From NCBI RefSeq assembly GCF_036669915.1, contig NC_089320.1, forward strand, positions 15,915,874 through 15,979,873: DNA of 64,000 nucleotides, in the 5' to 3' direction. Both the position numbers and the translations under genes were made by a program. The notes under the pieces are model-generated. The model was not told where the DNA came from, did no database searches, and saw only the letters and a list, made by a program, of their open reading frames with translations. This DNA comes from Pocillopora verrucosa. Its lineage: Eukaryota. The stretch's first letter is position 1; each line of letters begins with the position of its first letter. Positions 1 to 27,600 of this stretch are shown piece by piece.

Positions 1-700
1 AGGTCATATTTTTGGGCCGAAAGCCTTGGAAAGGTAATGAAGTTTGCAGTGCATGGTCTATGTCTTGAGGTTCTGGCATCTTTTTTTTAAAGCCTGATTT
101 GAAAAAAAATATATGTCTCAATCAGGAGCCCTCTTGTCTCGATATGTTCTTGGTGGCAACTTGAGGTAGATATGCTACAATCTAAGAAAGATGCTCCTTT
201 GGATCGCAAAATAAATAGATTTTCTCTTACCAGGTTCAGGTTTAAACACCTTAAAGGCCACTCTTTAGTGCCCCCTTCCCCCCACCCCTCAGCTGAAATT
301 GTAGCCTCATAAGGGGGCCAAAAGAAAATCAATTTGAGGGACATGATTTCAAATGACACTAAGCCCTTGAAAAATATGAAAAGGACATGGAAAATTAAAT
401 GAAAATAAGTAATCATATTTTGACCTGAAACTGAAATACATGCAAAGAAGAATTCCTTGCAGGTGAGCTGCAATTTAAGAAATTTCAGAAAAGACTCTTG
501 AAACAGTTAAGGCTTTCATGAGATTCAGTTAAACCCACGCCTCCCAGATAGTTGATGGGTGCCACTACCAACTGAGCAATAAAGCAGTCTACTTTAATTG
601 GTTCTTTGTTCCAGTAAAGAAATCAAATCACAATAAATTCAAAAGGTAATGTCTATTTGGATTTATCAGATTTTGATGAAAATTTGTCTAAATGGTAGTT
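1..700. repeat. Intergenic block duplicated at 8101-8760
   Basis: 'aggtcatatttttgggcc..aagccttg..aatgaagtttgcagtgcatggtctatgtcttgaggttctggcat' is present at position 1 and at 8101. Co-linear similarity continues through about 700 and 8760. Confidence 0.75.
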
Positions 701-1518
701 ACGCATTAAGTCACCAAACTTTGTGAGGTTTTGTCGTGTTTATTTTTCATGTTGTTTCCAAGCTGATGACTGACATGGAAAACCTTTTTCTTTAGTTATC
801 TTCTCAACCAATTACATGTGTTGTTTTCACCCCGTCCAATTATTTCACATGGAATTATATATGTGTTTCTTTCGGGTACACTAACAAGCGACTAAATCGA
901 TACAAACGAACTTGTGTACCTTTTTGACTAAAACAATTTCAAAATATGTTATTACCAATTCTTTGTTACAAAAATAAAAATAGTAAAGAATAGAACGTAA
1001 AAGAAAACATTTCGCCCCTCTAAGATGATCCTCCAAAGCCATAAATTGGAGATTCCTGGACGGTGGGTAGAGTAATTGTATCCAGCTTCGAACAACAAAA
1101 CAACTAAACAGCTGTTGAATGTTTTTGATAAACGAAATTGATTGATTTCGATCGAGACAAAGCGACTCTGGAGTTGAGGAGAAGAAGGCATCGGTCGGGC
1201 ATCAGTAAAATCTTGAAAGATTGCCAAATTGGAGATTTTTCTTTTACATTGCACATAACTGTTCCATGTGTTAATTGAACAAAGAAGACATCATGATACG
1301 TGGATTAAAAACTGAATACTTCCAGTGGCTTTTTTCTCAATGGGTGTAATCGAAACAAGATTCATCAAACTGCGAGAGACGACGCGTGAGCTGGGACATT
1401 CATTAAACTTCAAAGGGTAATGTTGCTCTCATGAAAAAGTACTCGGAAAACCAAACGCTTGTATTACCAATCATCCTTCACTCAGGGAGCTTCAAATCTA
1501 CCGAGTTTGCAAACAGAA

Positions 1519-2460
1519 ATGCTGTCCAATTCATCTGACGCATTAGATAGGTTTTGCTCTGCTTTTACTTATAGAAATGAGCATATGAGCATCTCATTTA
1601 ACTATTGGACACTTATGGTAACCAGTGTTTTTGCGTGTCTTCTTGCCCCCATGACAGTGGCTGGGAATGCTTTCGTTTTGGCAGCAATTTGGAGAAACCC
1701 GGCGCTAAGGACTCCATCCCATGTGCTTCTCGCTGGATTGGCCTTCACGGACTTTTGCACAGGACTAATAAGTTTGCCAGTTTTTGCTGCGTTCATGTCA
1801 GCACATTTAAGGGAAAGAAGTCTGAGATGCACTTTTAATCTGATTTCATATGGTGTTGGTAATTTTTTCGGCGTCTCGACGGTCGGTATCATAACGATGG
1901 CTGCTGCAGAAAGATGGCTGTGTATGAGCCGGAGGTCTCTTCTTACAGTACGCCGAGTTACCATTCTTTACATCATAATGGTGTGCTTGATAACTGCCTT
2001 TGTAACTGTCCGCGTTTTCAGTTTTCGGTATCTATCAAAGGACATAGACAATTTGCTGAATGGAGTTTTTCTGACAGCAGCGGCGATTTGTATTCTGGTC
2101 ATAGCAGTTTCGTATTACAAGGTGTTTGGAATAATTCGTCACCATCAAAAAGGAGTTCAAGGAAATCAAAATTCCATTGATATTTCAAAATACAGAAAAT
2201 CTATATTCACCGTTCTGTATATATTTTCACTTTTTGTGATCAGTTACCTCCCCTATTTGGTTAACGCGTTGACCTTTTACGTTTTGCAAGAATTCGGGGA
2301 CACGTTCGTAACATTCAACAGATTAACTACGACTATTGTTTATTCTTCATCGTTTTTAAATCCTTTGCTTTATTGCTGGAGGATGAAGGAGATAAAGATG
2401 GGTGTAAAAAATTTAATGAGAAAGCTATTTTGTAAACAAGCAGCAGAGGATGAGGAATAA
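1519..2460 (+). CDS. Intronless rhodopsin-like (class A) orphan GPCR, copy 1
   Basis: The ORF has 7 hydrophobic segments. N-terminal N-glycosylation sites NSS. TM1 'GNAFVLAAI'. TM2 'LAGLAFTDF'. End of TM3 'AAAERWLCM', an ERW variant of DRY. TM7 'NPLLYCW' (NPxxY). TAA stop at 2458. The start is taken at the conserved MLSNSSD Met; the six-frame ORF extends upstream to 1459. Confidence 0.8.
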   Translation: MLSNSSDALDRFCSAFTYRNEHMSISFNYWTLMVTSVFACLLAPMTVAGNAFVLAAIWRNPALRTPSHVLLAGLAFTDFCTGLISLPVFAAFMSAHLRERSLRCTFNLISYGVGNFFGVSTVGIITMAAAERWLCMSRRSLLTVRRVTILYIIMVCLITAFVTVRVFSFRYLSKDIDNLLNGVFLTAAAICILVIAVSYYKVFGIIRHHQKGVQGNQNSIDISKYRKSIFTVLYIFSLFVISYLPYLVNALTFYVLQEFGDTFVTFNRLTTTIVYSSSFLNPLLYCWRMKEIKMGVKNLMRKLFCKQAAEDEE

Positions 2461-3492
2461 CGCCATATTTTCAGTAGTAAGTTTCCCTTGACAAAAAAAA
2501 CATAAACATACGCATACCTGCTAGAAAATTAATACATAAAGAGAGGACAAGATCATTACACAGAGAAGAAAGAAATTAAATAAGATCAATACTTAGAAAA
2601 GAAGGCGAATAGTAAGATTTGTTTTTAAATGCTTTTGTCTTATTTATAGGAAGTTTTTGCCTCGATTAGTTTACGGTCGTTTTTAGCCACTTGCTTGTTT
2701 TAGCAACTTGTTCGTGTCAATATCTTGGTAGTTTTAGTATTCTGGTTTTATCGACAATAAATCTCTGTAACCGTCACTTTGCTTCTCGTGATTGCGTCCC
2801 GAAAAATAGTCCCAAACACCTTGGTAGCCATACTCCCAAAGTAACGCGTCGCTTGAATTTTGTTCCAGTCGCCGCAAGCGTAACAGGGAAGTTTACTTTG
2901 ACAAGTTTGGTTGTTAATTTTCTTTGTCAACCTGTATACCTAGCACTTTCTCCGTGGCAACTCGGCGCTTGCATGTTGGCAAAAGTTGCAATATTGCAAA
3001 AAAAAGCCTTGAAAGTGTCATTGCTGAACCATGGAAAAAATTATTTCAAGGCACAAATATTTGCATAATGTTGGTATGTTTAATAATCATTTGGTAATTA
3101 TCGAGCTGCACTGAGATATCTCGAACCATTAGGGCCTATTTACATGGAGGTGGAACCCCAGGTAGGTGGGGTAACCCGTTTTTCCATATAATTTCTTATT
3201 TTATTTTGATCGCGTCTATATGATAGGTGGGGTGACCCACCTAGGCGGGTTGCCCGGTCTGCCAGGTAAGGTAACCCTGTCAGCCAGGGTGACAATTTAG
3301 GGAAAAGAAACAACCCTGCCACACCCTTGTACTGACAATAAAAGGTACAGACAAGTCAACATTGTAACTGACTCTGTGCGTGGTATCTTAATAATGACCC
3401 TGGATGATCTCGATGATCATTATCTGCGAGATGCTATAATACTGATCTAAGGATTTTTCAGAGTATTTCTTTGTCTACCATTTCACACACCC

Positions 3493-3690
3493 TCTAGATA
3501 TCAACTCAACCGGCAAAGTTTATTACTAGTCTACCGACTGCTTCCTTATTATGCGGAAGGTTGCTAACTTGATCGTGCGCGATCTGCCTGCATCCATCCA
3601 CAACTTTCTTGGTCCTCTTCAGCAAATCCATGGTGCGTACTTCGCTTAGCAGAGTAGGGTTAGTAAGGAGCTGGATTCTCCTCCAATTAA
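3493..3690. repeat. About 200-bp block shared by GPCR units 1 and 3 (second copy 12338-12531)
   Basis: 'tctagatatcaactcaaccggcaa.gtttattactagtctaccgactg...atgcggaaggttgct.acttga.cgtgcg.gatctgcctgcatcc' is in both copies and absent from unit 2. Confidence 0.6.
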
Positions 3691-4802
3691 TAATATACAA
3701 TGATGTTTTCACATCTTTGAGGCAAAAGAGTTCAAAGTCTGGCTAAACAGTTCAAGGAATTGTTCAGTCTGTGTCAGAAGCACTTTCGATGAAATGGAAT
3801 TGTCGTTTGCGAGGTTTAACCATGTTTGTTTTTAATTTCGGCCTAGGATCGCTCGAGGTATGTGTTAAGCCAGGTCGGCTCGTAATTTTTGATTTTCTTG
3901 TCAATTCCCTTCTCTAAACACCACTTTTTCCAAACCGACAACCAAAAAGCAGTGCTTTTTACAATGTTTTCGTTGTTAGAACTGTCTTTCAGCTGTTTGG
4001 ATAGTTTGGTTTCTTACGGACTCACGGTGGTTTTTAACTTTGCTAGGAATATGGCTGTTGTGAATACAGTCAATTAAATGTGTTGTTTTTACATCGTCCA
4101 ATTATTTTACATGGGAGTATACACTTAAAAGCAATTAAATCGATATAAACCAACTTGTGCACCTTTTTGACTGAAACAATTTCAAAATACCCCATTACCG
4201 ATACTTTGCCAAAAATTAAAATAGTAAAGAATGGAACGTAAAAGAAAAAATTTCGCCCCTTTAAGATGATCCTTCAAAGCCGTAAATTGGAGATTCCAGG
4301 ACGGTGGGTAGAGTAATTGTATTCTTCCAACAGCTGTGTAGCTGTGTAGAGTACTTGTATCCAGCTTCGAACAGGTAAACAAGCTAAACAGCTCTTGAAT
4401 GTTTTTGATATACGAAATTCATTGATTTTGATCGAGACAAAGCGACTTTGGAGGTAAGGAGTAAAAGGCATCGGTCGGGCATCACTAAAATCTTGAAAGA
4501 TTGCCAAATTGGAGATTTTTTTTTCTATTTTGAATATAACTGTTCCTTGTTTTAATTGAACAAAGAGGACATCATGATACGTTGATTAAAAACTGAATAC
4601 CTCCAGTGCTTGTTTTTCAATAGATGTAATCGAAACAAGATTCATCAACTGAACTGCGAGAGACGACGCGTGGGTTAGGACACTCATTAAACTCCACAAG
4701 GGTAATGTTGCTCTAATAAAAAGTTTAACCTAAAATTAACGCTTGTATTACCAATAATCCTTCACTCAGGGAGCTTCAAATCACTCGAGTTTGCATACAG
4801 AA

Positions 4803-5738
4803 ATGCTGTCCAATTCATCTGACGCATTAGATAGGTTTTGCTCTGTTTTTACCTATAGAAATGTAAGCATCTCATTTAACTATTGGACAACTGTGGTAAC
4901 CAGTGTTTTTGCGTTTCTTCTCGCTCCCATGACAGTGACAGGGAATGCTTTTGTTTTGGCAGCAATTTGGAGAAACCCGGCGCTAAGGACTCCATCCTAT
5001 GTGCTTCTTGCTGGATTGGCCTTCCCGAATTTTTGCACAGGACTAATAAGTTTGCCACTTGCAGCTGTGTCCAACTTAGCACTGTTAAGGGAAAGCAGAA
5101 TGACATGCACTCTTGTTCTGATTTCATATTGTGTAAGTCAGTTTTGCGCCTACTTGACGGTCGTTGTCATAGCGGTGGCTGCTGCAGAAAGATGGCTTTG
5201 CATGAGCCGGAGGTCTCTTCTTACAGTACGCCGAGTTACCATTCTTTACATCATAGTGGTGTTCTTAATAACCGCCTTTGTAACTGTCCGCGTTTTCAGT
5301 TTTGGGTATCTATCGAAGGACATAGACAATTTGCTGAATGGAGCTTTTTTGACAGCAGCAGCGATTTGTATTCTGGTTATGGCAGTTTCTTATTACAAGG
5401 TGTTTAGAATAATTCGTCACCATCAAAAAGGAGTTCAAGCAAACCATAGTTCCATCAATATTTCAAAATACAGAAAATCTATATTCACCGTTCTATATAT
5501 ACTTGCACTTTTTGTGATCAGTTACCTTCCCTATCTGGGTAACGCGTTAACCTTTTACGTTTTGCAAGAATTCGGAGACATGTTCCTAGCATGCGTCAAG
5601 TTTACTTCGAGTATAATTTATGTTTCCTCGCTTTTAAATCCTTTGCTTTATTGCTGGAGGATTAAGGAGATAAAGATGGGTGTAAAAAGCTTAGTGAGAA
5701 AACTATTTTGTAAACAAGCAGCAAAGAATGAGGAATAA
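4803..5738 (+). CDS. Intronless rhodopsin-like (class A) orphan GPCR, copy 2 (intact paralog)
   Basis: Complete 312-aa reading frame, about 85% identical to copy 1. It keeps the ERW and NPLLY motifs. TM2 reads 'LAGLAFPNF' instead of 'LAGLAFTDF'. Confidence 0.8.
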   Translation: MLSNSSDALDRFCSVFTYRNVSISFNYWTTVVTSVFAFLLAPMTVTGNAFVLAAIWRNPALRTPSYVLLAGLAFPNFCTGLISLPLAAVSNLALLRESRMTCTLVLISYCVSQFCAYLTVVVIAVAAAERWLCMSRRSLLTVRRVTILYIIVVFLITAFVTVRVFSFGYLSKDIDNLLNGAFLTAAAICILVMAVSYYKVFRIIRHHQKGVQANHSSINISKYRKSIFTVLYILALFVISYLPYLGNALTFYVLQEFGDMFLACVKFTSSIIYVSSLLNPLLYCWRIKEIKMGVKSLVRKLFCKQAAKNEE

Positions 5739-8700
5739 CGACAAATTTTCACTAGTAAGTTTCCCTTGACAAGTTGTGCGTGGCAGAATAGGTAGAAGAA
5801 AACTATCAAAAACGAATACTGATGGTGTAAGTGACTTTTTAAGGACGTTTCCAAAGGAAACAGTAAAAGATTTTAGATTATTACTGCAGGAATGCTAAGG
5901 ATACTAGCCGATTTTCTTGACTATTAACTACCATGAAAACGTTTTTCTCCTCAGTTACAATGTTTATTCATGTTGATTTGCCTATCTATCGTTCTTGAAA
6001 GCTGACCCTTTAGCGTCCTTTTTGCGTCCCACGCGCGCATTAAAGGCGACCTTATCGTCCTTTCTTCAGTTGTATTTAGTAATTCGAAGGATCCTGACGT
6101 TTGCTACATTTGTAACTTTTGAAACCTTTGGCGCAAGTGGGACCGATGTGGAAGTTTATTCTTTTATTTCGCTTGTGTTCAGTTTTCTTTTATTTTGATT
6201 AGATAAAGGTACTCGAAAATCTATTGTACAGTGTACCTTTTTAATTGCTTTCTGATGAGTAGCGAAAATCACGCTTAGCGTTTACGAGTGAACGCCCACC
6301 TTTTAGTTTGAGAACGCTTGGGCCATTGACTGTTTGCTTGAATCTCTTAACGTAGCTTTTTTTTTTTGCCTTTTAGTTTTTTTGTTGCGATTTGAGTTGT
6401 AATTGACCCTGTTTTTGACACACTGTTTATTAAGTAATAAGAGTTAACAAATGAAAGAGAGGTAACTGTACACCGCAGATAGCATAGCTAATCTGGGTGG
6501 TGTAGAGTTTTTGTATTACACAACATAAAATAATAAATATGGGAAAACATATACATATGCATATCTGCTAGAAAATTAATACATAAAGAGAGGACAACAT
6601 CATTACATACAAGAGAAAGAAACTAAATAAGATCAATACTTAGAAAAGAAGGCGAATGGTTAGATTTGTTTTTACATGCTTTGATCTTATATTTAGGAAG
6701 TTTCCGCCTCCATTAATAGGAATTCGTTGCATTATTACTTCAGTTTACGGTCGTTTTTAGCCACTTGCTTTTTTTAGCTACTTGTTCGTCTTAATATCTT
6801 AGTAGTTTTAGTATTCTTGTTTTTATCGACAATAAATCTTTTTTAACCTTCACTTTGGTGCTAGTGATTGCGACCCGTACAGTAGTCCCAAACACCTTGG
6901 TAACCATGTGCCCAGAGCGACGCCTCGCTTGAATTTTGTTTCAGTCGCCGCAAGCGTAACACGGAAGTTTACTTTAACAAGTTTTGTTGTTAATTTTCTT
7001 TGTCAACCTGTATACCTAACACTTTCTCCGTGGCAACTCGTCGCTTGCATGTTGGCAAAAGTTGCAATATTACAAAAAACGACTTAAAAGTGTGATTGCT
7101 AAAGCATGGAAAAAATTATTTCAAGGCACAAATATTTGCATAACATTAGTATGTTTAATCGTTTGGTAATTATCGAGCTACACTGAGATATTTCGAACCG
7201 TTTATCGCACGTTACTTTTACTTCACCATCATATTGCCTTAAAATTGCCAGTGAGTTAGACATGTGATGAATGATAAAAGGATATAAATTGATGTTTTCA
7301 AACTGAATAGTGTTAAATCAGTAAGTGTATTGCGATTATTGCCAGTTGAAATGCTTTTCGTTCCCTAAAGCAGTCCTATGAATTTGATAGGAATGTCTCT
7401 TTCGCGCAGCTTGATTAAGCCTCGCAGGATTCAAAAAATTGTTAGTGTTGTCTTCACCTTCAGCATCACCTAATCAATTACCGGTAAGAAGGTGAGTAAC
7501 TATGGAAAAGAAACAACCCTGCCACACCCTTGTACTGACAGTAAAAGGTGCAGACAGGTCAACACTGCAACTGACACTGTGCGTGGTATCTTTAGAACGA
7601 CCCTGAATGATCTTGATGATTATTATTTGCAAAGGGACGGCTGTATGTTATTTTTTCTTTATTGACGCAACTTATATTGATTTGACCTCGTTGTTTCTGA
7701 CGCAGGCATGCTGAATCAGTAATCAACATGCCATTGCGATTTTGGACTTGATCGGAAACAGAAATCTCAATGCGATGCTTGATAATCCGAGGAAAAATGT
7801 AGAGTAATTCGCACGCAGCAGTAAAATCAACGATGATATTGCAAACCAGATTCGGAAAAGTTTGACCTCCACGGGTAAGTCTTACGATGATTGTTTATAT
7901 TTCAATGATTGACCTCTGGTTTGATAAAAAAAATTTTTATCAGCGTGGCTTAATTCTTTGAGCAAAACAGATGATAAAGCGACAATAAAGCGCTCAATAA
8001 GCAAATCAAACAACAGTAGACCTCTTTCAAGTCCGAGGTATGGGTTTTAGGGGTCTTACAAGTCTCCAACGAGCGATAACGTTTTGCCATTTGGTCTCAA
8101 GATCAGGTCATATTTTTGGGCCAAAAGCCTTGTAAATGTAATGAAGTTTGCAGTGCATGGTCTATGTCTTGAGGTTCTGGCATTTTTTTCTTTTTAACTC
8201 TGATTTGAAGTCTAAGAAAGATGCTCTTAAATTGGATCGCAAAATAAAAAGATTTTCTCTTTCCAGGTTCAGGTTTAAACACCTTATTGGCCACTCTTAA
8301 GTGCCCCCTTCCCCCCACCCCTCAGCTGAAATTGTAGCCTCATGAGAGGACAAAAGAAAATCAATTTGAGGGACATGATTTCAAATGACACTAAGCCCTT
8401 ATAAAATATGGAAAAGGACATGAAAAATTAAGTGAAAATAAGTAATCATATTTTGACCTGAAGATGAAATACATACAAAGAAAAATTCCTTGCAGGTGAG
8501 CTGCAATTTAAGAAATTTCAGAAAAGACTCTTGAAACAGTTGAGGCTTTGATGGGATTTAATCCCACGCCTCCCAGATAGTTGATGGGTGCCACAACTGA
8601 GCAATAAAGCAGCCTACTTTGCTTAGTTCTTTGTTCCTGTAAAGAAACCAAATCCCAATGAATTAAAAAAGGTAATGTCTATTTGGATTTATCAGATTTT

Positions 8701-9550
8701 CGGATGAAAATTTGTCTAAATGGTAGTTACGCATTAAGTCACCAAACTTTGTGAGGTTTTTTCGTGTTTATTTTTCATGTTGTTTCCAAGCTGATGACTG
8801 GCATGGAAAATCTTTTTTTTCAGTTATCTTCTCAACCAATTACATGTGTTGTTTTTACTCCGTCCAATTATTTCACATGGGATTATATAAATGTTTCTTT
8901 CGGGTACACTAACAAGCGACTAAATCGATACAAACGAACTTGTGTACTTTTTTGACTGAAACAATTTCAAAATATCTTTTTACCGATAATTTGTTAAAAA
9001 ATAAATATTATAAAGAATAGAACATCAAAGAAAACATTTCGCCCCTTTAAGATGACCCTGCAAAGCCATAAACTGAAGATTCCAGGACGGTGGGTAGAGT
9101 AATTGTATCCAGCTTCGAACAGGTAAACAAGCTAAACAGCTGTTAAATGTTTTTGATATGCGAAATTCATTTATTTTGATCGAGACAAAGCGACTTTGGA
9201 GGTAGGGAGAAAAAGGTATCGGTCGAGCATCACTAAAATCTTGAAAGATTGTTAAATTGGAGATTTTTTTTTTTTTTTACATTGCATGTAACTGTTCCTG
9301 GTTTTAATTGAACAAAGAGGACATCATGATACGTAGATTAAAAACTGAATAATTTCAGTGGTTATTTTTCAATAGATGCAATCGTAACAAGATTCATCAA
9401 ACTGCGAGAGACGACGCGTGAGCTGGGACACTCATTAAACTCCAAAAGGGTAATGTTTCTCTAATGAAAAAGTTTACTCGGAAAACCAAACACTTGTATT
9501 ACCAATCATCCTTCACTCTGGGAGCTTCAAATCCGAGTTTGCAAACAGAA

Positions 9551-10437
9551 ATGCTGTCCAATTCATCTGACGTATTAGATAGGTTGTGTTATGTTTATAC
9601 TTATAGAAATGTGAGCATCTCATTTAACTATTGGGCAACTCTGGCGAACAGTGTTTTTGCGTTTCTTCTCGCTCCCATGACAGTGACAGGGAATGCTTTC
9701 GTTTTGGCAGCAGTTTGGAGAAACCCGACGCTAAGGACTCCATCCCATGTGCTTCTTGCTGGATTGGCCTTCACGGACTTTTGCACAGGACTAATAACTT
9801 TGCCACTTACAGCTGCGTATAAGTTAGCACATTTAAGGAAAAGCAGTATGACATGCACTCTTGTTCTGATTTCATTTAGTGTTGGTCTGTTTTTTGCCTC
9901 CTTGACGGTCGTTGTCATAGTGATGGCTGCTGCAGAAAGATGGCTTTGCATGAGCCGGAGGTCTCTTCTTACAGTGCGCCGAGTTACCATTCTTTTTACC
10001 ATAATGGTGTGCTTGATAACTGCTTTTGTAACTGTCCGCGTTACCAGTTTTCGGCATCTATCGAAGGACATAGACAATTTGCTAAATGGAGCTTGACGGC
10101 AGCGGCGATTTGTATTCTGGTCATAGCAGTTTCGTATTACAAGGTGTTTGGAATAATTCGTCACCATCAAAAAGGAGTTCAAGCAAATCAAAATTCCATT
10201 GATATTTCAAAATATAGAAAATCTGTATTCACCGTTCTATATATACTTGCACTTTTTGTGATCACTTACCTCCCCTATCTGGGCAACGAGTTAACCTTTT
10301 ACGTTTTGCAAGAATTCGGAGACATGTTCCTAACACGCCATAATTTTACTACGATTTTTGTTTATGTTTCCTCGCTTTTAAATCCTTTGCTTTATTGCTG
10401 GAGGATTAAGGAGATTAAGATAGGTGTAAAAATTTAG
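9551..10437 (+). pseudogene. GPCR copy 3, pseudogene with frameshifts
   Basis: The ORF breaks at 10096 (TGA). Copies 1 and 2 read 'ggagcttttttgacagc' here and copy 3 reads 'ggagcttgacggc', a 4-nt deletion. Homology continues in another frame (ORF 9940-10437). A second 1-nt deletion near the 3' end gives '...GVKI*'. Confidence 0.7.
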
Positions 10438-12644
10438 TCAAAAAATTACTTTGTAAACAAGCAGTAGAGGATGAGGAATAATGATATATAGTTTCCCTAA
10501 ACAAGTTTTGCGTGGCAGAATAGGTGAGAAAAACTATCAAAAACGAATACTGATGGTGTAAGTGACTTTCAAGGATGCTTCCTAAGGAGACGGTTATAGA
10601 TTTTAGATTATTTCGACTTGCAGGAATGTTAAGGATACTAGCCGATTCTATTGACTATTAACTACCCCGAAAACGTTTTTCTCCTTAGTTACGATCTTAG
10701 TTACAATGTTTATTCATGTTGATTTGCCTATCTATCGTTTTTGAAACCTGACCCTTTAGCGCCCTTTTTGCGTCCCACGCGCACATAAAAGGCGAACTTA
10801 TCGTCCTTTCTTCTGTTGTATTTAATAATTCAAAGGATCCTTTGCGATTTGTGACTTTTGAAGGCCTTTGGCACAAGCGGGACCGATATGGAAGTTTATT
10901 CTTTTATTTTGCTCAGGTTTAGTTTTCTTTTACTTTGATAAGATAAAGGTAGTCGAAAATCTTTTGTACAGTGTACCTTTTTAATTGCTTTGTGAGGAGA
11001 AGCGAAAATCACGCTTAGCGTTTACAAGTGAACGCCTACCTTTCAGTCTGAGAACGCTTGAGCTATTGACTGTTTGCGTGAATCACTTTACGTAGTTTTT
11101 TTTTTTTTTTCGCTTTTTAGGTTTTTTTCGCGATTTGAGTTGTAATTGACACTGTTTTTGACACACTGTTTATTAGGTATTGAAAGTTAACTAATGAAAC
11201 CTAATCTGGGCGGTGTAGAGTTAATGTATATTTGTATTTGTACACAACATAAAATAATAATTATGAGAAAACATATACACATGTATATCTGCTAGAAAAT
11301 TAATACATAAAGAGAGGACAAGATCATTACATACAAGAGAAAGAAATTAAATAAGATCAATACTTAGAAAAGAAGGCGAATGGTTAGATTTGTTTTTATA
11401 TGCTTTGATCTCATAGTTAGGAAGTTTCCGCCTCCATTAGTAGGTATTTGTTGTATTATTACTTTAGTTTACGGTCGTTTTTAGCCACTTGCTTGTTTTA
11501 GCTACTTGTTCGTGTTAATGTCTTGGTAGTTTTAGTATTCTGGTTTTTATGGACAATAAATCTCTGTTAACCTTCACTTTGGTTCTCGTGAGTGCGACCC
11601 GAAAAATAGTCCTAAACACCTTGGTAGCCATACGCCTAAAGCGATTCCTCGCTTGAATTTTATTTCATTTGGAATTTTATTTCTTTGTCAACCTGTATAC
11701 CTAACATTTTCTCCGTGGTATCTCGGCGCTTGCATGTTGGCAAAAGTTGCAATATTGCAAAAAAACGGCTTGAAAGTGTGATTGCTAAAGCATGGAAAAA
11801 ATTGTTTTAAGGCACAAATATTTGCATAACATTGGTTCAATAATCATTTGGCAATTATCGAGCTGCACTGAGGTATTTCAAGCCGTTTATTGTACGTTAC
11901 TTTCACTTCACAGCTAAACATCTGCTAAATGATAAAAGGAGATTAATTGATATTTTCTAAATAGTGTTAAATCATTAAGTGTATTACGATTAGTGCCAGT
12001 TAAAATGATTTTCGTTCCCAAAAGCAGTCCCATGAATTTGATAGGAATGTCTCTTTCGCGCAGCTTGATAAGCCTTGCAGGATTCACAAAATTGTCCTTG
12101 TTGTTTTCAGAATCACCAAAGCAATGGCCGGTAAGAAGATAAGTAGGGAAAAAACAACCCTGCTACACCCTTATGCTGACAGTGAAAGGTGCAGACAAGT
12201 CAACACTGAAACTGACTCTGTACGTAGTATCTTAATAACGACCCTGAATGAATTTGATGATCATTGTTTGCGAGATGCTTTACAGGCTGATCTCAGGATT
12301 TTCCTGAGTATTGCTTTGTCTACCATTTCGCACACTCTCTAGATATCAACTCAACCGGCAAGGTTTATTACTAGTCTACCGACTGTTTTCTAATTATGCG
12401 GAAGGTTGCTGACTTGACCGTGCGAGATCTGCCTGCATCCGTTCACAACTTTCCTGATCCTCTCCAGCAAATCCATGGTGTGTACTTCGCTTAGCAGAGT
12501 AAGGTCAGTAAGGAGCTGAATTCTCCTCTAATTATGGCAGTTACGATGATCCCCTTTCCTTTAACTTAGACGTTATTTACGAAAGACGATGGATTCTTGT
12601 CTTTTTATCGGTGTGCCATTGTTTTGGTTTTACTTTACTATGCT

Positions 12645-12715
12645 CAGTGATTGGCCGAGAAACTTCGCGCCAATTGACAGTCTGCCACGTGGAAAAACTT
12701 CAACCAATCACGACT
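12645..12715. promoter_or_regulatory. Cluster of CCAAT boxes and a CACGTG E-box (candidate promoter module, target unknown)
   Basis: gattggcc at 12649, ccaattg at 12671, cacgtg at 12686, ccaatca at 12703. Confidence 0.2.
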
Positions 12716-13371
12716 TAGTCACTCGCGTTTTCTGATCAGTCGTTATCGACTAATACAATTTTGCTCTGACGACAACACACCACAAAATGCGTTGTAAATT
12801 TGAATGCCAAATAACATTTGCTGTTGAAAAGTCCAAGTGTAGCGCCCTAGAAAAACGAACACAATGATTGTTAAGTGCAAACAAGTTATTACGTAACTGT
12901 CTTTGTTCGTGGTTTTCGTTTTTGCTTAGCTTAGTTTTGCGTCCTCGTATCTCTTGTTACCCCTGTTGACTAGTCATATATTGTGAGCAAGACCTTCTCC
13001 GGATCCCATGAAGTATTAGTAACAGAGTGTTAGAGTGCCTTCCGAAGGATCTCGATATTACTTTAATTTTTTGGTGTTTCTTCCGACCATAAGACTGAAG
13101 ACTGAACAATACTCTAGCAGTGAACCTTATTGGTTCCAAAATGTTCACGTGATTCTTGACGTTTTAGTTTACTGCCCAAATAGAAAACATTTTCCATACT
13201 CAAGAAAAACATTCTCCCGTTAATAAATTCTAGTACAGCCTGACTTCATTAAACGAACTGAAACGAAACCGAAAATAATGCAAACATCTTACATCTAAGC
13301 GAAAACAATTCTTTTTTTGTTCATTATTAAACTAAAAGTTACAGCTATAGTCTGGCCCACAGATAGCTTTA

Positions 13372-14274
13372 TCATTTCTTTATCTTTAGAGTGTTCAACA
13401 ACTCCGCCCGGAGGTGCCACAGACTGAATTTCATCCCGTTGATTTTTACCAAGCCCATGGTCATTTCCAGTTCTTCACAAATAGCATTTCGGCGAATAAT
13501 TCCCTTTTGATTCTGGACAAACAGCATCAGTCTGCTACCCAGAGAAGACTTTTTTTCCTCGGGAACATCTCTCTCGAGGTCCTTAGCACTAGACGAAGCT
13601 GGACTAGCTGGTGCAGAGATCACGGGTTGCGCAGAAGTATGCGGAGTCATTGCTTGATTGCAAATATCTTTCAGCCAGAGATCAACTTCTGTGTCTTCTA
13701 CCATCACATCCCTCGATTGTGGCGTTGATTCCGTGTCACCACCAGATAACATAAGCATCACCTCACTAGGAAGACAACCTGTAGGGAGACAGACCTGCAC
13801 ATGACCTGGGTACGTTATGCTGGGAGGACTAAGGCGCGAGGTAAAACATGGCACATTTTCACAATTGTCCGGGTGGTAATCTTTATCTTCAAAGATCTGA
13901 ACGGATGACGATGACTTCTTCTTTCCTTTCCATATGCGCCTTCTAAACAATCGTTTAGATGACAGAAACTTTTTGCAAGGGGGAGAGGCAGCTCCTTCTA
14001 TATCAAAAGGCTCTACTATCAGTTCAGGCTCGTCGCGCGGAAAATCCACTTGTTTGCTGCTTTTTCCGTTGGTACAGGGCCATTCACTTCCCTTTGGTGA
14101 TGAAAAATCATTTGGCATTGGGTGATCTGCTAAAGGGCTTTCCTCATATTCTGCCCATGCAAAAATAGGCTCGATTTTTCGTCCGCTGTTGTTTGCCATG
14201 ACTCGTCTGAATCGGGGCTTAGCAAGACTTGCAATGAGTAGTTTAAAAACAATCGTTTTGTTCAAAACAAACAA
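13372..14274 (-). CDS. Hypothetical single-exon ORF encoding a Ser/Pro/Lys-rich 300-aa protein
   Basis: Uninterrupted 903-nt ORF on the minus strand in unique sequence. No recognisable domain. Low-complexity stretch SAPASPASSSAK. Confidence 0.35.
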   Translation of the reverse strand: MFVLNKTIVFKLLIASLAKPRFRRVMANNSGRKIEPIFAWAEYEESPLADHPMPNDFSSPKGSEWPCTNGKSSKQVDFPRDEPELIVEPFDIEGAASPPCKKFLSSKRLFRRRIWKGKKKSSSSVQIFEDKDYHPDNCENVPCFTSRLSPPSITYPGHVQVCLPTGCLPSEVMLMLSGGDTESTPQSRDVMVEDTEVDLWLKDICNQAMTPHTSAQPVISAPASPASSSAKDLERDVPEEKKSSLGSRLMLFVQNQKGIIRRNAICEELEMTMGLVKINGMKFSLWHLRAELLNTLKIKK

Positions 14275-15452
14275 AACAATTAGAGCTTATGATTAGGAAT
14301 CAAACGAAATGGTCATGGTCATTGTGACTGTATGAGGACGTTCTTGGTTTTGATTGCTCGAAAAACATTGTTTTGCCCTTCGATAAAGGTAAGCCAATTG
14401 CAAATCGGCTTTTATTTTGGATAATATTGATTTGAACCGGTAATTGGGGTAAATGAGTGTATTGTGGCCGCTAATTTAATGAATTACCGGGAAACCTTAA
14501 ATGATTGAGGCCTAATGATGTTGCGCTATTACAAAATCTGGAAAAACAACATTGATTTTATTTGTACAATTGCGGAATTAACCTTCTCTGACCGTTAGGA
14601 ATGACCACTAAGTAACTTCTCCTTCAAAAAAGCAGATTTGTGTGATGGCGAGTAGTCGAAAGAACTTTTCCATCTGAACTTTGGCGGAATTTGTTTGAAA
14701 TCAGACGGAAGCGTCTGAAATGGGACAGAAATCGATTGGATGGAAATCTCACGGAAACCACAAAATCGGAGGAAATGGTCAGAAACGTCCAAGATCAAAT
14801 AGAAGCGACTCGTATTGAAATAAAGCGTATAAAATCTGCAATTACCGTCCAAATTGGACGGAAACGACGAAAATGAGCTATTTTGCCTCTACTGCTCATC
14901 CGGGCACACAAAGTGTTGCTGCCAGGGCGCGCTAGCTAGCCAAGCCACCGAACCGTTTATTTAACACCAGTATGTTTACAAAAGTTTATTACGATGGAAG
15001 GAAACTAATTGCGCCAAAGCCGGACTCGAAAACCTCTGAAAACCAGCAGGTGGAAGAAATGGGGAACGTGTACCCCGGTAGCCGGTCAAGTCGCCCGTAG
15101 AAACAAAGGTTTCGAAGATCAGACTTGCAGACTGCAAACAGGCAATAAAGTCTTCACAGATATTTATAAACTTTTCAATTTTCTTTCGCCTATTTTGCGA
15201 GGCAGTAGTTACATGTTATGTTTTTCTTTGAAATTATTTAGCGGGGGTCGGCCAGAATTGCTCCCTTCGCGCATGCTGGACGTTTGACCGCTGTGTTGTG
15301 ATGATAAAGTCGGCCATTATTGTTGTTGTTCGCCTGACATTTTCTCTGGTGTAAGTTCATTCCCAGGCCATCTCTTTATTTAGCGCTGACAGCGCAGCTA
15401 CCTGCAGAAAGTGCAAAATGAAAACACAAAGTGTATGCCTTCTGTCCTAGAC

Positions 15453-18600: not shown

Positions 18601-21600
18601 TTATATGAAGGTTATTTTTTTTTTTGGCGGGGGGGGGGGGGGGGGGAACCAGAATTTTTTTCCTGAAAACCATTTTACTATTGAAGGTTGCCAAAAGGTG
18701 GCTTTTTGTAAAGAAAATGACCTTGGAGCCCTACTTTAGCTCTGGAACTCTGGTTGTTACAATTTCAGACATGCGAGAACTTTAAAGATTTGCATGACTT
18801 GGAGAATCCCCACATAGGCTTACAAGATTTGAAGTTTGGGTAAAAATTATGTTAAACCTGAATTTTTTAAAGTAACAATGAAGACCTTTAGTTATTAGGT
18901 AATCATTGATAATAAGCGTAATTGATGCTCTAGATATAGCATTGCTTCTTTCAGAAAACAAATCCTGGTGAGGGTCCTCTTCTTCTTTACTCTCTGGAGT
19001 TGCACTTCATTCCTTCACATGTACCTTGCACCAGCTCAAGATACCGCTTATTTACGCACCAAGGTACCTTGATGGCATTCATCATGGTAAGATCAAATTT
19101 TGGAGTGTTGTTAGACAGTTAAAATCAGTTTGAGTTTTATCTCCTTTTGTGCCAGATTATGATAATGTAGCAATTGAACCACAAATTATATGTAGATACA
19201 AATGTTTCAAATTTGGTCGTTGACAAAATTAGTGCCATCAGCCTTGCTGTTGTAATTTCTTCAGCAAGATGTGGAAAAACAATACTGTGTATCTCTTGCA
19301 TTGTTACTCAGCCCACTCACAGAAATGAAATTAACAACAGCAAACTCTGCTCGAGTATTTAGCCTTGGGTTGTAACTCCAAAGAAAAGCAATGTGATCAG
19401 CAGTTTTGAATATTGACCTCTTAGTAACTAAGTGCAAGGGCAGTACTGAGGAATATTGGCCTAAGGTCATGGCAGTATGGACTGCAGGCCAATATTACCC
19501 AGTGCAGCTCAAGCAAGTAAGGTTAGTAAGTAATTTCATACATCATCATGGCACTTGGATTAAACTTGTCTGGTTTGAATTTACCACCTCTTTGTAAACA
19601 CTTCTGATAATCATTTCTGTGGAAACCATCTGTATGGCAAAATCCCAGCTAAGTAAGAACTAATCAGAATAGTTGGATTAACCTCAAGGCAACCTGGCTG
19701 TAGACATATATGTAATAAGTAATATTGCAGAATTTGGCTTTTTTCTTTTGAAGCAACAAAAATTTTATCCCTCATTAAAAGGTGAATATGAAAAATGTAC
19801 CTGGAGCCCCATTACATAAGATGCACAAGACTTAACAATATGCATTTACTGTATGGATACATCACACCTTAGCAAAACATAATTATTTTTGCTTTAAGTG
19901 TGATTTCTTTTAGGTTACCGGTAACCTTTACATTTGATTCTTGCAGGGATATAATGAAGGAACAAAGGAGTGCAGATATTTCAGCTCTTCTGAGGAGGCA
20001 TTTGGAGCATTCATTGCTATAACAGATCAGCAATTTGCAGACGGTTACAAGAAATTATCAAAGTATCCATCACCTAATATTGGCTCTGACAGACTGAAAC
20101 AGGTGGGTATTAACTTATGTATTTAACAAAAAATGGTAATTTTTGTCTGAGTAAAATAGAAGAAAATGAGAAATTCCTTGATCTAGAGTGAGAGTAGTCC
20201 TGGAAAGGACTATTGTAAGGGAGGGTGACAGAGGCTTTGACAATCTGTTTGGAAATTATCCTCACAGAAAAAAGATATTTGATAGTGTGGTCTGATTGTC
20301 CTAGTGTGAATAGTCCTGAGTCCCAATCGCTTTGACAAAAGGCTAACACTCAAAACGTCAGCCTTTTAACTCTTTATGGTGGCCAATTCGCGTTATCAAC
20401 TTAATTGATAACACTAAATTACACTGTTATACCCTCCCACTGACACAGTACCACTGTTTCTCTAGAAACTTACCCCCTTTATTCATTAGTCCTGAGAGGG
20501 ATTGTTTTTGGTAGAAGTGATTGACACTTTGGCAACCTTTGTGGAAGTCGTCATCAAAGTTGACTCTGACAAGGACTCCAAGAGTTACTTACATCAAGAT
20601 TTTTGAAATTTCAGTGATTTTCTTTCCAACAATAGTCCTTCTTGGGACTACTCTTACCCACTGATAGGACAACAAGATTGAATATTGCTCTGTAAGACAA
20701 ATTTATGGCATAAAAGAGGATGCTCAAATCGTAGTATTTTGTAGAACAAGATACAACATATCTCAAACTTATTTCCCCAGGAAAAATATCTTTTTGTTGT
20801 CTATTGATATATGTCTCTTGTCTATTTTCAGTTGGTGAATGAGGAATCATCTTCTCAAGAAGATTCTTCAATCTCCCCTGAAGTTGCAAACCTTATCAAT
20901 TACATTTGGAATGAGGCAGTAGGCAGTCTGGCAGATATTCTGGCCACTCCTCTCAGTTCCATCAAACTTGAGGATGTAGAGAAAGCTGAAGCAATCTTAC
21001 TTTTATTGAGAAAATCAATAGATGATGGTGAAGGGGTCAGCACTATTCACCAGCTATCTGATGAGTTTTTCTCAGCTATTCCTCACAAGAACAGAGGAGA
21101 AAACATAAGTTCAAAGCGTCTCATTGCTCAAAAACAAGACTTTTGTCAAGTAAGGAACATCTCAGATATTAGAAAAGGTTGATTCATGAGTGTTTTTTAT
21201 CATGTGGGTGGGAATAGTTGTTTAACCCTTAAATTCCTGAGATCTGATTGTTAATTCTCCCCTCTATTTGCTACACATGTTCTTGTAAATTAGTTAGGAG
21301 AATTTGTGATTACAACATCTACCTGAAAAGTTTTAAGTATTTTTATTACCTGTTTGCTGGATATTACATGGAATTAAAGGGAGATGTTATATGTTAGTAA
21401 CTTCTGGGAGTTGAAGAGTTAAATTGCTGGTGTCAGTTATACTGTTGATCATGAACATCCTTTCAAATGGCTTACTGGTAAATTTCATTGTATTTGAAAG
21501 GAAGTTGTTTGATTCACCAGTTCTGAAATACTGGTGACAATTTTAAGATTACAGTTTGGGTAGGTACGGTAAAGCTTATAAGGGTTACCCATTTCTTCTG

Positions 21601-24600: not shown

Positions 24601-27600
24601 GCAAGTTGCTTCCACCAGACTGCTGTAACTGACAAAATCGTTTTTGATCTTCAGGACGACGAGTTTGCCATCTACAACGGGAACCAACAGAAAATAAGGT
24701 AACTGTAACAGTGCTTGGTGTCCATCACCTAGCTTTGAGGGTTGCAGTTAAGAGGACTTCATAGATCTGATTCATAAACTGCTTTACATTTTCTTTTAAA
24801 TTAGTTGGGAGGATTCGGTGTTATATCAACACATATTTTCTTGATAAGATTTTCCATTCTCGGTATTTGTTTGTTGGATAATAGATTCATATTAAAAAGA
24901 GACGGTGCATCTTGATCAATTCTGGATCTGTAAAATAAACTGAGGCCAAGCTTTGGCCGGGAAACGATTTTTCGTTTCTGGAAAAGCCTGAAGTGATACA
25001 GTCTCTCTTCCTTCCCAGAGTTGTTAGGGAGCTTACTTGAGGCTGTTTACTACCCTAAGTCACGTAATGCTAAAAAAAAAAAGTGCGTTAAGCCTCGGCA
25101 GTTATGCAGGGCCAGATTTATTTGATACTTTTTTTAGAACTATAACCTTTATTTACGATACGTGTGTGTAAAATATCTGTCCAAAGATCTTTAAAAATTT
25201 CCATTTTTTTGCAGATATCTGGTTGAGTTTGTGTTGCGTGGTGATGTTGTAGTCGCTGATCGAGATGATGCCTCGATTGATAGCGGGTTTTTCGATGATA
25301 GCTCGGAAGCTGCTCCCGAAGGTATTGAATGAACGTCCTCCATTTTGAAATTTTTTTTGTAGGTTTCTAAAATTAAGGTGACAGGTCGCTGTTATTCAAT
25401 TATATTATGGATAATAAATTGCGATATGAGTCTATTTGCTATTTGTTATTGCTTTTAAGCATGTTCTTACAATAGTTGAAAATGTAACTAGAGTTTTGAA
25501 CTGATTTCAAATGCTTTTTCCTAGACCATCGCGGCAGTGTAGTCCTAACGGATGTGATGTCAATTGTGGATCCTCTGACTAAAGTTGAGGCAGGACTTAA
25601 GGGAACTGGAGACAAGTCCATCCCGTTGCAGTCAGTTCATATTAGAGCTAGGCTGTTGGATTTGGCGGCTCAGGTTGGTCAAATTGCCGAGGAAAATTTG
25701 ATTAAGCTTATTTGGTAGGCTACATCATTCATTCCCTTTCTGATTGAGCTGCATCGCGATCTCTGATATTATGTCACATTTTTTCCGGTTTCTGGGCGCG
25801 AAAAATCAATTTCATCTTGAAGAAGGCTACAAAATATTAGATCGGCAAGGTGGAAAAACATCGAAGGGGAGAAGATAAACCAAGAGGGAGAAGTATGGTC
25901 AAGGATGGCGCAGATTGACACGGATTGCAAATTAGTAATGATTAGTAATGACTAATGATTAGTTTGATTAGACAGGAAAACACCAGAGAGGCAAGACTAA
26001 ACTAAGAAGGAAGACAAGACAAGACAACTTTATTTTACCAGGGTAGCCCAGTTAGCTGCAAGGCTGGTATCCTTAGGGGCCCTGGAAGAAGTAAGGTCAA
26101 GGATGGAGAAGATTCATACGGATTGCAAGCGATCTAGTTTAAGATGCCCGAAGCGTGACGTAGCTCCTATCGTCTCTCTCCAAGAGCTGTTTGAATTTTT
26201 GGCAATGATAAGCTTACAAATCATTTTTATATTCTTTTTTTTTTTTTTACCACAGGTGATAGTTTTTCAAGAGTACAGCAATAACAGCTCGACGCCCATA
26301 GAAGCTAAATACGTTTTCCCTCTCGACGACATGGCAGCAGGTTTGTCTTTAGTCGACGGCCTGATAGTTTATAGAAAAATTCGAAACTCTTTTTAAAAAA
26401 CTTGTGTGATGAACTTTCGAACTCCTGTAATTTGTATCTTGGCTACGGCAGATGACCTTCGGACTTGTGGTTATAGTTGAGGGGTAAACTTTGTTGGATT
26501 CTCATATTATCCAGGTGATTCACTTCTCTGTAATAGTTTTTTCCCTTGTTTTGGTTGAGAGAATGAATTCAAAATTAAGGGTTCACGTTGCCGACGAATC
26601 GGGCCCGCTGTTTTATCTTAACGGGGTTTAAAAAGCTCCCGAAGTACTGTTGAATAGAAGTTTAACATACCTTCTCTGTTGACGTCCTTCTGGTCATAGT
26701 TTGTGGTTTTGAGGCGTTCATCAATGGTAAGCATATCGTTGGTGAAGTGAAGGAAAAAGAACAAGCGCACAAAGAATATAGGGAAGCCATCAGCAAGGGG
26801 CATGGGGCCTACCTTATGGACGAGGAAACTCCGGTAGGTAACGTGTTTTCCACCTGATTTTCAACCACGAAACTTCATCTACGTTGTGTTGTGATATCGA
26901 AGTTGCTCATTTGAATTGAGTGAACACAAGAAGAATTTATAGGTCTAAAACTTCGAAAAGGTTACATTTTTTTAGTTATCCTGTCTCCTTCAAACAAAAT
27001 TTTGGCTATCATGCAATTCGTACACCTCCACCTTTGTAGCGAAGTCTTTGCTATTTTGAGATGAAGGTAATCGTGGATAGCTTTAGTGGTGGCCGAGAGG
27101 GATTACCTCCTCGTAGATTTCTTGAAACGTAGAATCTTTAGAGTAAATGTTCATTTGTTGTTATATGGAGTAAGACTGCGCCACCACCACAACATGTCGG
27201 CCCCTTTCTCCGAATTCTCTGGGTTCCTCAAGGTAACGCTAATAAGATCCCACCCTTTATTTATATCTCATATTTCTCTTGCTTATTTCATATTTACTCA
27301 GGATGTGTTTACAGTCAGTGTTGGAAACCTTCCTCCCGGTGCTCAAGTATTAATCAAGATAACTTATGTCACTGAATTAACAGTGGACGGCGAACACATC
27401 TGTTTCTCTCTCCCAGGCTCCGTGGCTCCGTGGACACGTGACAAGGCCTTAGAAGAAGTAACTCAGGTCATGAGCCACATTTTATGCCTTCTTTTACTTA
27501 CTTCTTTTGTGTTGTTGCGCGTTTGACTTCAACTTCATCGTTGAATCAAGTTCTTTTGTTTTTTTTTCTTATCAGACTTATGTGGATACAGTGCGGATAG

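Follow-up and report, generated by a model that had tools for sequence, protein, structure and literature searches.

In vertebrates, olfactory receptors and trace amine-associated receptors (TAARs) are encoded in tandem arrays of genes with intronless coding sequences (CDS), which are marked by segregating pseudogenes, copy-number variation and nonsynonymous divergence of the ligand pocket. In corals, amplified and largely tandem orthogroups most often carry the rhodopsin-like G protein-coupled receptor (GPCR) domain, which is found in 34 of 192 (Noel et al. 2023, Genome Biol 24:123, PMC10236652). That study, on Porites lobata and Pocillopora cf. effusa, reported gene conversion to be very rare in corals and left the function of the amplified GPCRs open. 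A literature search on intronless tandem coral GPCRs retrieved only opsin papers. Among chemokine receptors, subfamily splits are marked by changes at positions 2.49, 3.35 and 3.39 (PMC6037435). Here we analyse a tandem GPCR locus of Pocillopora verrucosa. The whole stretch of DNA analysed, termed the window, comprises 64,000 nucleotides of contig NC_089320.1 (positions 15,915,874 to 15,979,873), and its positions 1-12540 consist of three direct repeat units, c1, c2 and c3, which were found by open reading frame (ORF) listing, repeat finding and self-BLAST (BLASTN). Probably the locus is a tandem array of single-exon, rhodopsin-like orphan GPCRs that is specific to Pocillopora and is shaped by birth and death and by gene conversion, c3 being a null allele and c2 a retained receptor.

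Receptor genes and repeat units

Each of the three units carries a single uninterrupted 7tm_1 ORF and is thus intronless by ORF listing and Pfam. The c1 product matches the Pfam model PF00001 (7tm_1) with 61.7 bits (E = 1e-16) over model positions 1-260 of 260, the c2 product reaches 59.1 bits, and two fragments of c3 match model positions 1-118 and 153-260 (gathering cut-off 30.5 bits). Judged by these matches, c1, c2 and c3 are intronless class A (rhodopsin-like) GPCR genes, and a preliminary description, which had called them three tandem genes of this class, was right in this respect. BLASTN places them in direct repeats: c1 (809-2494) and c2 (4071-5772) share 85.2% identity over ~1.7 kb, and c1 (181-2468) and c3 (8211-10489) share 89.3% over ~2.3 kb, both with E = 0. 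An identity of 85-89% agrees with the 85-90% given previously, but the shared upstream sequence is longer than the ~600 bp proposed, since homology starts 710 bp upstream of the ATG for c1/c2 and 1338 bp upstream for c1/c3 within the window. The latter runs past window position 1 when compared with L008, one of our comparison contigs (L-numbered), which are mostly short-read Tara Pacific coral metagenome assemblies. Because the c1/c3 homology continues beyond the window start in this contig, the c3 unit begins near 7681. A block of ~775 bp 3' of the stop codon is common to c2 and c3 and missing from c1 (self-BLAST). No fourth GPCR copy was found by tblastn anywhere in the 64-kb window. The units and the sites discussed below, all on the plus strand, are as follows (TM, transmembrane helix; ECL, extracellular loop).

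1..3689: repeat unit c1 (CDS with its upstream and 3' flanks), which leaves the window at its start; homology to the c3 unit at 1-103, 181-2468, 2497-3130 and 3298-3689
1519..2460: c1 CDS, intact, 313 aa, with GN (1.50), TD (2.49-2.50), ERW, SYLP and NPLLY
1750..1752: c1 codon GAC for Asp 2.50, residue 78 (phmmer alignment to 5-HT1A D82; nucleotide alignment)
1783..1890: c1 ECL1 and upper TM3 block (codons 87-122 in c2 numbering), hypervariable, a conversion tract common to copy b
4071..7630: repeat unit c2, without the distal 808 bp of upstream sequence common to c1 and c3 (BLASTN, repeat families D1-D15)
4803..5738: c2 CDS, intact, 311 aa, Pfam 7tm_1 E = 6e-16
5025..5030: c2 codons CCG AAT for Pro 2.49 and Asn 2.50, residues 75-76, with 3 nucleotide changes against ACG GAC
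7681..12534: repeat unit c3 (self-BLAST and comparison with L008)
9551..10481: c3 CDS remnant, a putative pseudogene in this haplotype
10093..10094: site of the 4-nt deletion in c3, T6 to T2, a real allele with the same junction in L015 and L016
10428..10432: site of the 1-nt deletion in c3, A6 to A5, a secondary lesion or an assembly error in a homopolymer

The CDS starts were set at the conserved Met of MLSNSS in all three copies. In c3, an in-frame ATG at 9464, upstream of 9551, adds 29 codons (MKKFTRKTKHLYYQSS...; 9464-9550 compared with c1 1430-1518), and gene callers have chosen an ATG of this type in many Tara contigs, giving products of 340-341 aa. Since this ATG is out of frame in c1 (2-nt gap) and absent in c2, MLSNSS is probably the conserved start.

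The phmmer alignments to the serotonin receptors 5-HT1A, 5-HT1B and 5-HT1F recover a set of class A signatures, i.e. GNAF (N1.50), LAFTD (D2.50), ERW on DRY, SYLP (P6.50) and NPLLY on NPIIY. Direct reading of the sequences revealed that W4.50, P5.50 and W6.48 are absent from all copies. W6.48 is replaced by Tyr (SYLP), there is no Cys at 3.25, the nearest one being at 3.22, and position 3.32, counted back from E3.49, is not Asp in any copy (in c2, residue 112 is Ser). The best matches among solved structures (5-HT1A/1B/1F, histamine H2, TAARs, beta-1 adrenergic, A2A/A2B) are remote, with phmmer E values of 1e-9 to 1e-5 and ~25-40 bits, and the names that NCBI gives to relatives (adenosine A3-like, LPA receptor-like, GPR45/63-like, MSH receptor-like) were assigned automatically and do not agree with one another. 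Membership of the aminergic, adenosine, lipid or melanocortin subfamilies was considered and rejected: even the best PDB match has only E = 1e-9, the matches are spread over subfamilies, and D3.32 is lacking.

Extent and age of the array

The contigs L003, L004 and L005 match window 1-14289 in colinear fashion with 97.3-97.6% identity, L017 does so for window 1-9938 with 98.7%, and all four hold c1, c2 and c3 in the same order. L008-L010 reach beyond the window start and there carry a and b, two more copies upstream of c1; in L003-L005 a further copy, d, which is frameshifted, lies ~8 kb downstream of c3 (L003 14818-20284, beyond the colinear part). Copy d is missing from the window, whose colinearity with other contigs ends at 14289, and this points to copy-number variation in the array. 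In P. damicornis, the GenBank model RMX39680.1 turned out to join units of the a, c1 and c2 types in one fusion protein of 983 aa. As reconstructed from these sequences, window 1-12540 is the middle slice of a tandem array of at least six units in the order a-b-c1-c2-c3-d, an array common to the genus. The near GPCR relatives (78-100% identity) are almost all located on Tara Pacific contigs. A protein identical to c1 is encoded on L017 (listed as P0170), and the c2 orthologs, to which the third unit of RMX39680.1 belongs, are 98-99% identical. An exact look-up of the c1, c2 and c3 products of the window gave no match, and the orthologous loci were reached through cluster members; for P. damicornis XP_027051553.1 (P0226) the look-up gave no contig.

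Pairwise Nei-Gojobori (NG86) estimates for c1, c2 and c3 gave a synonymous divergence (dS) of 0.15-0.16 and a ratio of nonsynonymous to synonymous divergence (dN/dS) of 0.61-0.74 within the window, and orthologs differ by a dS of only 0.005-0.035. This roughly fivefold excess of paralog over ortholog dS places the duplications before the split of the sampled Pocillopora lineages. The next tier of relatives has at most 57% identity, and therefore the expansion looks genus-level.

The preliminary description had instead spoken of a recent tandem triplication, according to which c1, c2 and c3 would all be young, lineage-specific duplicates of this genome. Such an event would be in line with the near equidistance of the copies (odd-one-out site counts of 83, 83 and 73 for c1, c2 and c3) and with their 85-89% identity including the flanks. 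It is nevertheless most improbable, because orthologs of each copy occur in the same order and spacing in contigs that are 1.3-2.7% divergent, a-, c1- and c2-type units are present in P. damicornis, the three are flanked by further copies (a, b and d), and paralog dS exceeds ortholog dS about fivefold. The colinear orthologous loci in particular refute it. No branching order of c1, c2 and c3 could be assigned, since the pattern of sites is star-like and made up of short runs.

Copy c2: loss of D2.50 and retention

In c2, the codons TTC CCG AAT TTT (F-P-N-F) are found where c1 and c3 have TTC ACG GAC TTT (F-T-D-F), which corresponds to the change from LAGLAFTDF to LAGLAFPNF that had been assigned to a putative Asp of TM2. 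The phmmer alignment sets the c1 stretch 'GNAFVLAAI...LLAGLAFTDF' against 'GNACVVAAI...LIGSLAVTDL' of 5-HT1A, with N1.50 in register. By counting on the human 5-HT1A sequence, we take the Asp of LIGSLAVTDL to be D82 (2.50) and the Asn to be N54 (1.50). In the alignments of c2 to 5-HT1B (LIASLAVTDL) and 5-HT1F (LICSLAVTDF), Pro falls on T2.49 and Asn on D2.50. On this alignment basis, the Asp replaced in c2 is D2.50. A survey of the T-D columns covered the 120 best relatives plus c1 and c2, of which 116 have a residue in those columns. T-D is present in 112 of these 116, the exceptions being c2, P0008 and P0009 with P-N and one sequence with His. Both the substitution and its position as described previously are thereby confirmed.

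The remainder of the polar core is kept in c2, which has N1.50 as well as T3.39, S7.45, S7.46 and N7.49 (counted from ERW and NPLLY). A compensating acid at 7.49 was not found in c2, where NPLLY is retained. At the sequence level, the pattern of a sodium site (acidic D2.50 together with S/T3.39, N/S7.45, S7.46 and N7.49) is thus complete in c1 and c3 and broken in c2.

It is important to note that the P-N pair is not confined to the window. It is present in all five c2 loci of the codon alignment, in L017 and in P. damicornis, and all 18 distinct PN-bearing proteins retrieved are full length to the normal C-terminus, with ERW and NPLLY. The c2 orthologs differ by 8 synonymous and 7 nonsynonymous changes, i.e. 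an omega of ~0.27 (binomial P = 0.011 against neutrality), which is lower than the ortholog omega of c1 (0.94) and d (1.27). One could object that c2 is decaying or does not signal, the loss of D2.50 being a first step to a pseudogene or to a ligand-binding decoy without G protein activation. Changes of D2.50 often abolish agonist potency, as does D52(2x50)A in the A2A receptor (PMC6954041), T-D is nearly invariant in the family, and other members of the array do decay. However, given that P-N is present in all c2 sequences sampled, that all 18 PN proteins are full length, and that omega is ~0.27 and significantly below 1, c2 is a maintained gene and not a decaying one. We thus regard decay or loss of signalling as unlikely; a decoy that is itself maintained stays compatible with these data. 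The substitution pattern indicates that c2 is under purifying selection and is retained by selection, and the previously suggested divergence of copy 2 after duplication is borne out in the sense that c2 has apparently diverged and yet been kept. Since D2.50 is the core Na+ ligand of class A receptors (PMC6037435) and D52A has this drastic effect in the A2A receptor, a retained receptor with N2.50 should differ in its allosteric set-point or coupling.

Copy c3: a young null allele

The three-way nucleotide alignment revealed two lesions in c3, the loss of 4 nt from a T run at 10093/10094 (GGAGCTTTTTTGAC to GGAGCTTGAC) and a 1-nt deletion at 10428-10432 (A6 to A5). Translation from the ATG at 9551 yields 181 aa (TM1-TM4) that end with NLLNGA and a stop, and the corrected frame is stop-free in tblastn, for 113 codons after the 4-nt lesion and for 16 after the 1-nt lesion. 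The same 4-nt deletion is present in L015 (99.3% identity, 3.5 kb) and L016 (99.5% identity to the window, 2.5 kb), which are Illumina contigs from different Tara samples and whose c3 CDS is identical to that of the window except for A6 in place of A5. In addition, a search with the frameshifted c3 ORF retrieved four proteins (P0288, P0289, P0290 and P0292) with the diagnostic junction AKW/SLTAAA. The 4-nt site is intact in L001, L003-L007 and L018, and P0197, an intact c3, occurs in 38 contig blocks. At the 1-nt site, L017 also has A5, but on a different c3 haplotype.

These data bear on the possibility that both deletions are assembly errors and that c3 is intact and functional in the sequenced animal. 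Both lesions lie in homopolymer runs, the corrected frame is free of stops, c3 is intact in many Pocillopora contigs (those of P0197), and, at the 1-nt site, A6 in L015 and L016 and a PAQR ORF that a 1-nt homopolymer deletion breaks at ~37297 point the same way. On the other hand, the 4-nt deletion is exactly repeated in two independent Illumina contigs and its junction in at least four distinct proteins, the indel:substitution ratio of the window is not inflated, and three long window ORFs match database proteins exactly. We therefore regard this explanation of both deletions as very unlikely; it survives for the 1-nt site only, where the lesion arose later as a private mutation or else reflects a homopolymer error. 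A general indel error of the window assembly was ruled out, as window-private indels and substitutions number 21:171 compared with 8:91 for L005, i.e. there is no indel excess; single homopolymer errors may still occur. Because the exact 4-nt deletion recurs in L015 and L016, it is a real allele in the lineage of the window. The aligned sequences identify c3 as a genuine young null allele in this lineage, in which the 4-nt deletion is predicted to truncate the product after TM4. The youth of the lesion follows from the private rate of c3: its window-branch substitution rate of 0.0064 per site equals that of c2 and is only half the non-coding rate (0.0125). Between the c3 copies of the window and L003 there are 1 synonymous and 7 nonsynonymous changes, and just 6 substitutions are private to the window, as would fit a very recent lesion. 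Thus, the view of copy 3 as freshly pseudogenised holds. As to the two deletions in an otherwise intact frame on which that view was built, both are seen, the 4-nt one is real, and the 1-nt one is absent from L015 and L016.

Further c3 alleles are disrupted in other ways. P0016 is a null allele by a frameshift in TM6 and is independent of the window lesion. An insertion of 682 bp with internal repeats of ~195-230 bp lies inside the ERW codons of c3 in L017 (12438-13119) and L014 (~831-1517), at the point that corresponds to window 9938. Called proteins that start inside this insertion include P0019, P0033 (a cluster of 88 members) and P0090. The element has no copy in the window and is therefore not classed as a transposon.

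Divergence pattern and gene conversion

The ratio of nonsynonymous to synonymous differences per site (pN/pS) varies strongly along the receptor (ICL, intracellular loop).

ECL1 and upper TM3 (codons 87-122, positions 2.61-3.42): pN/pS 2.3 for the three window copies, 1.5 for six paralogs
ECL3: pN/pS 0.89 for the three window copies, 1.03 for six paralogs
TM3 bottom and ICL2: pN/pS 0.33 for the three window copies, 0.26 for six paralogs
TM5 and ICL3: pN/pS 0.22 for the three window copies, 0.23 for six paralogs

Since ECL1 and upper TM3 show a pN/pS of 1.5-2.3 and ECL3 one of about 1, the paralogs probably recognise different ligands. From the low values of 0.2-0.3 at the bottom of TM3 with ICL2 and at TM5 with ICL3, together with ERW, NPLLY and helix 8, we infer that the receptors keep their coupling surface.

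A comparison of b and c1 on individual contigs revealed that both copies carry the same ECL1-TM3 block. L008 and L010 have the block type H1 at both loci, and L009 has H2 at both, H1 and H2 being distinguished by 14 nucleotide differences, almost all of them nonsynonymous. We read this pattern as a demonstration of local interlocus gene conversion between b and c1. A second candidate case is L011 (sample SAMEA6040191, the same as that of L015), in which a copy-a backbone (96% identity to copy a of L008) carries the 4-nt deletion haplotype of the window c3 at position 1050-1080. As proof of recurrent mutation this contig was set aside, because the shared tract of ~200 bp also has two linked single-nucleotide polymorphisms, so that conversion or an assembly chimera is more likely.

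Neighbouring genes

Just downstream of c3 lies a 300-aa ORF (13372-14274, minus strand) that is rich in Ser, Pro and Lys and free of Pfam domains; L003-L005 and L014 retain it at a length of 248 aa. Three other long ORFs of the window match database proteins exactly; one match is P. damicornis XP_027051545.1, and another falls in a cluster with a P. verrucosa PARP4-like protein. Two tandem intronless PAQR/HlyIII genes lie further downstream. The first (32712-33923) is intact and has an exact database protein match; in the second (36764-37896, plus strand), a T5 run has lost 1 nt at ~37297, and the gene is thereby split in two ORFs. L012 and L013 have an intact 377-aa ORF at this place, and the window lesion is a real null allele or a homopolymer error. 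The plus-strand region 20811-51750 contains a PARP_reg ORF (20811-21182), a VIT ORF (27086-27526) and an exon of 437 aa (50437-51750) that clusters with the P. verrucosa PARP4-like protein XP_058952767. This arrangement suggests one long PARP4-like gene, made up of the PARP_reg and VIT ORFs and the 437-aa exon, with the two PAQR genes nested in an intron on the same strand. A 1.6-kb segment of the window (29100-30716) is absent from L012 and L013, which are otherwise 98-100% identical, and is possibly a mobile-element insertion; the ORF within it (29683-30054, minus strand) has no Pfam match.

Discussion

Across the sampled lineages we find orthologous copies together with lineage-specific losses and pseudogenes, and the b/c1 tract is more alike within than between haplotypes. 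We propose the following scenario. The array predates the splits among the sampled Pocillopora lineages, and unequal crossing-over between its 3.3-4.8 kb repeats would have made its units and would still reshuffle them. Birth and death is apparent in c3, d and some a alleles, which carry frameshifts or an insertion, and in d, which is missing from the window haplotype. The receptors would diversify their ligand pocket and keep a common coupling surface. In c2, a retained paralog, T2.49-D2.50 has changed to P-N with the rest of the polar core unchanged; we predict that the acidic Na+ site is lost and that activation is therefore sodium-insensitive, with a changed set-point or coupling.

Several points weigh against this scenario. 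The figure of 'five times older' is rough, as the NG86 pairs are blurred by gene conversion. Paralog chimeras are possible in short-read metagenome contigs, and L011 could be such a case; the concerted b/c1 pattern is seen on single contigs and is hence less exposed to this problem. After discounting non-independent pairs, the nonsynonymous excess in ECL1-TM3 is only suggestive. The 1-nt deletion of c3 may be an assembly error; elsewhere in the window, a PAQR ORF is likewise broken by the loss of 1 nt from a homopolymer. Finally, the 'functional' status is read from selection signatures with small counts (15 changes in c2).

A more far-reaching reading would take the array for a recognition system that shuffles cassettes. 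Conversion would move the ECL1-TM3 blocks H1 and H2, and even null lesions, among paralogs, and thereby create colony-to-colony diversity under diversifying selection, for example in the sensing of symbionts, microbes or settlement cues, with c2 as a maintained receptor without a sodium site and with a distinct signalling mode. If true, this would run counter to the literature, where gene conversion is regarded as very rare in the tandem arrays of corals; we consider it rather unlikely and favour birth and death with local conversion.

Since the tandem expansion of rhodopsin-like GPCRs is already known to be dominant in coral genomes, the locus is ordinary. Its value lies in being a compact, population-sampled case of duplication, pocket diversification, conversion, segregating nulls and copy loss. 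Moreover, c2 would represent a naturally fixed D2.50N/T2.49P receptor beside ~79% identical paralogs with T-D, and hence a natural experiment on the class A sodium site. Within the taxonomically difficult genus Pocillopora, two c3 lesions, namely the 4-nt deletion and the 682-bp insertion, could be used as simple markers of lineage.

With vertebrate aminergic and adenosine receptors, the coral copies share the 7TM fold, N1.50, LAxxD in TM2, ERW of the E/DRY type, P6.50, NPxxY and helix 8. They differ in lacking the amine-binding Asp D3.32, W6.48, W4.50, P5.50 and Cys 3.25. Vertebrate olfactory and TAAR arrays would resemble the coral array in their birth-and-death character; the coral array is small, with six units seen, and is known from its sequence. 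As in the chemokine receptors, c2 has a paralog-defining change in the Na+ pocket that includes 2.49, arose after duplication and was then conserved. The chemokine receptors, however, keep D2.50, whereas c2 has Asn and no compensating acid at 7.49. With the coral orthogroups of Noel et al., finally, the array shares the genus, the Pfam/InterPro domain and the long maintenance of tandem clusters. It differs from them in the concerted ECL1-TM3 blocks of b and c1 and in one frameshift haplotype that is found on two paralog backbones, and in this way it mildly challenges the notion that gene conversion is very rare in corals.

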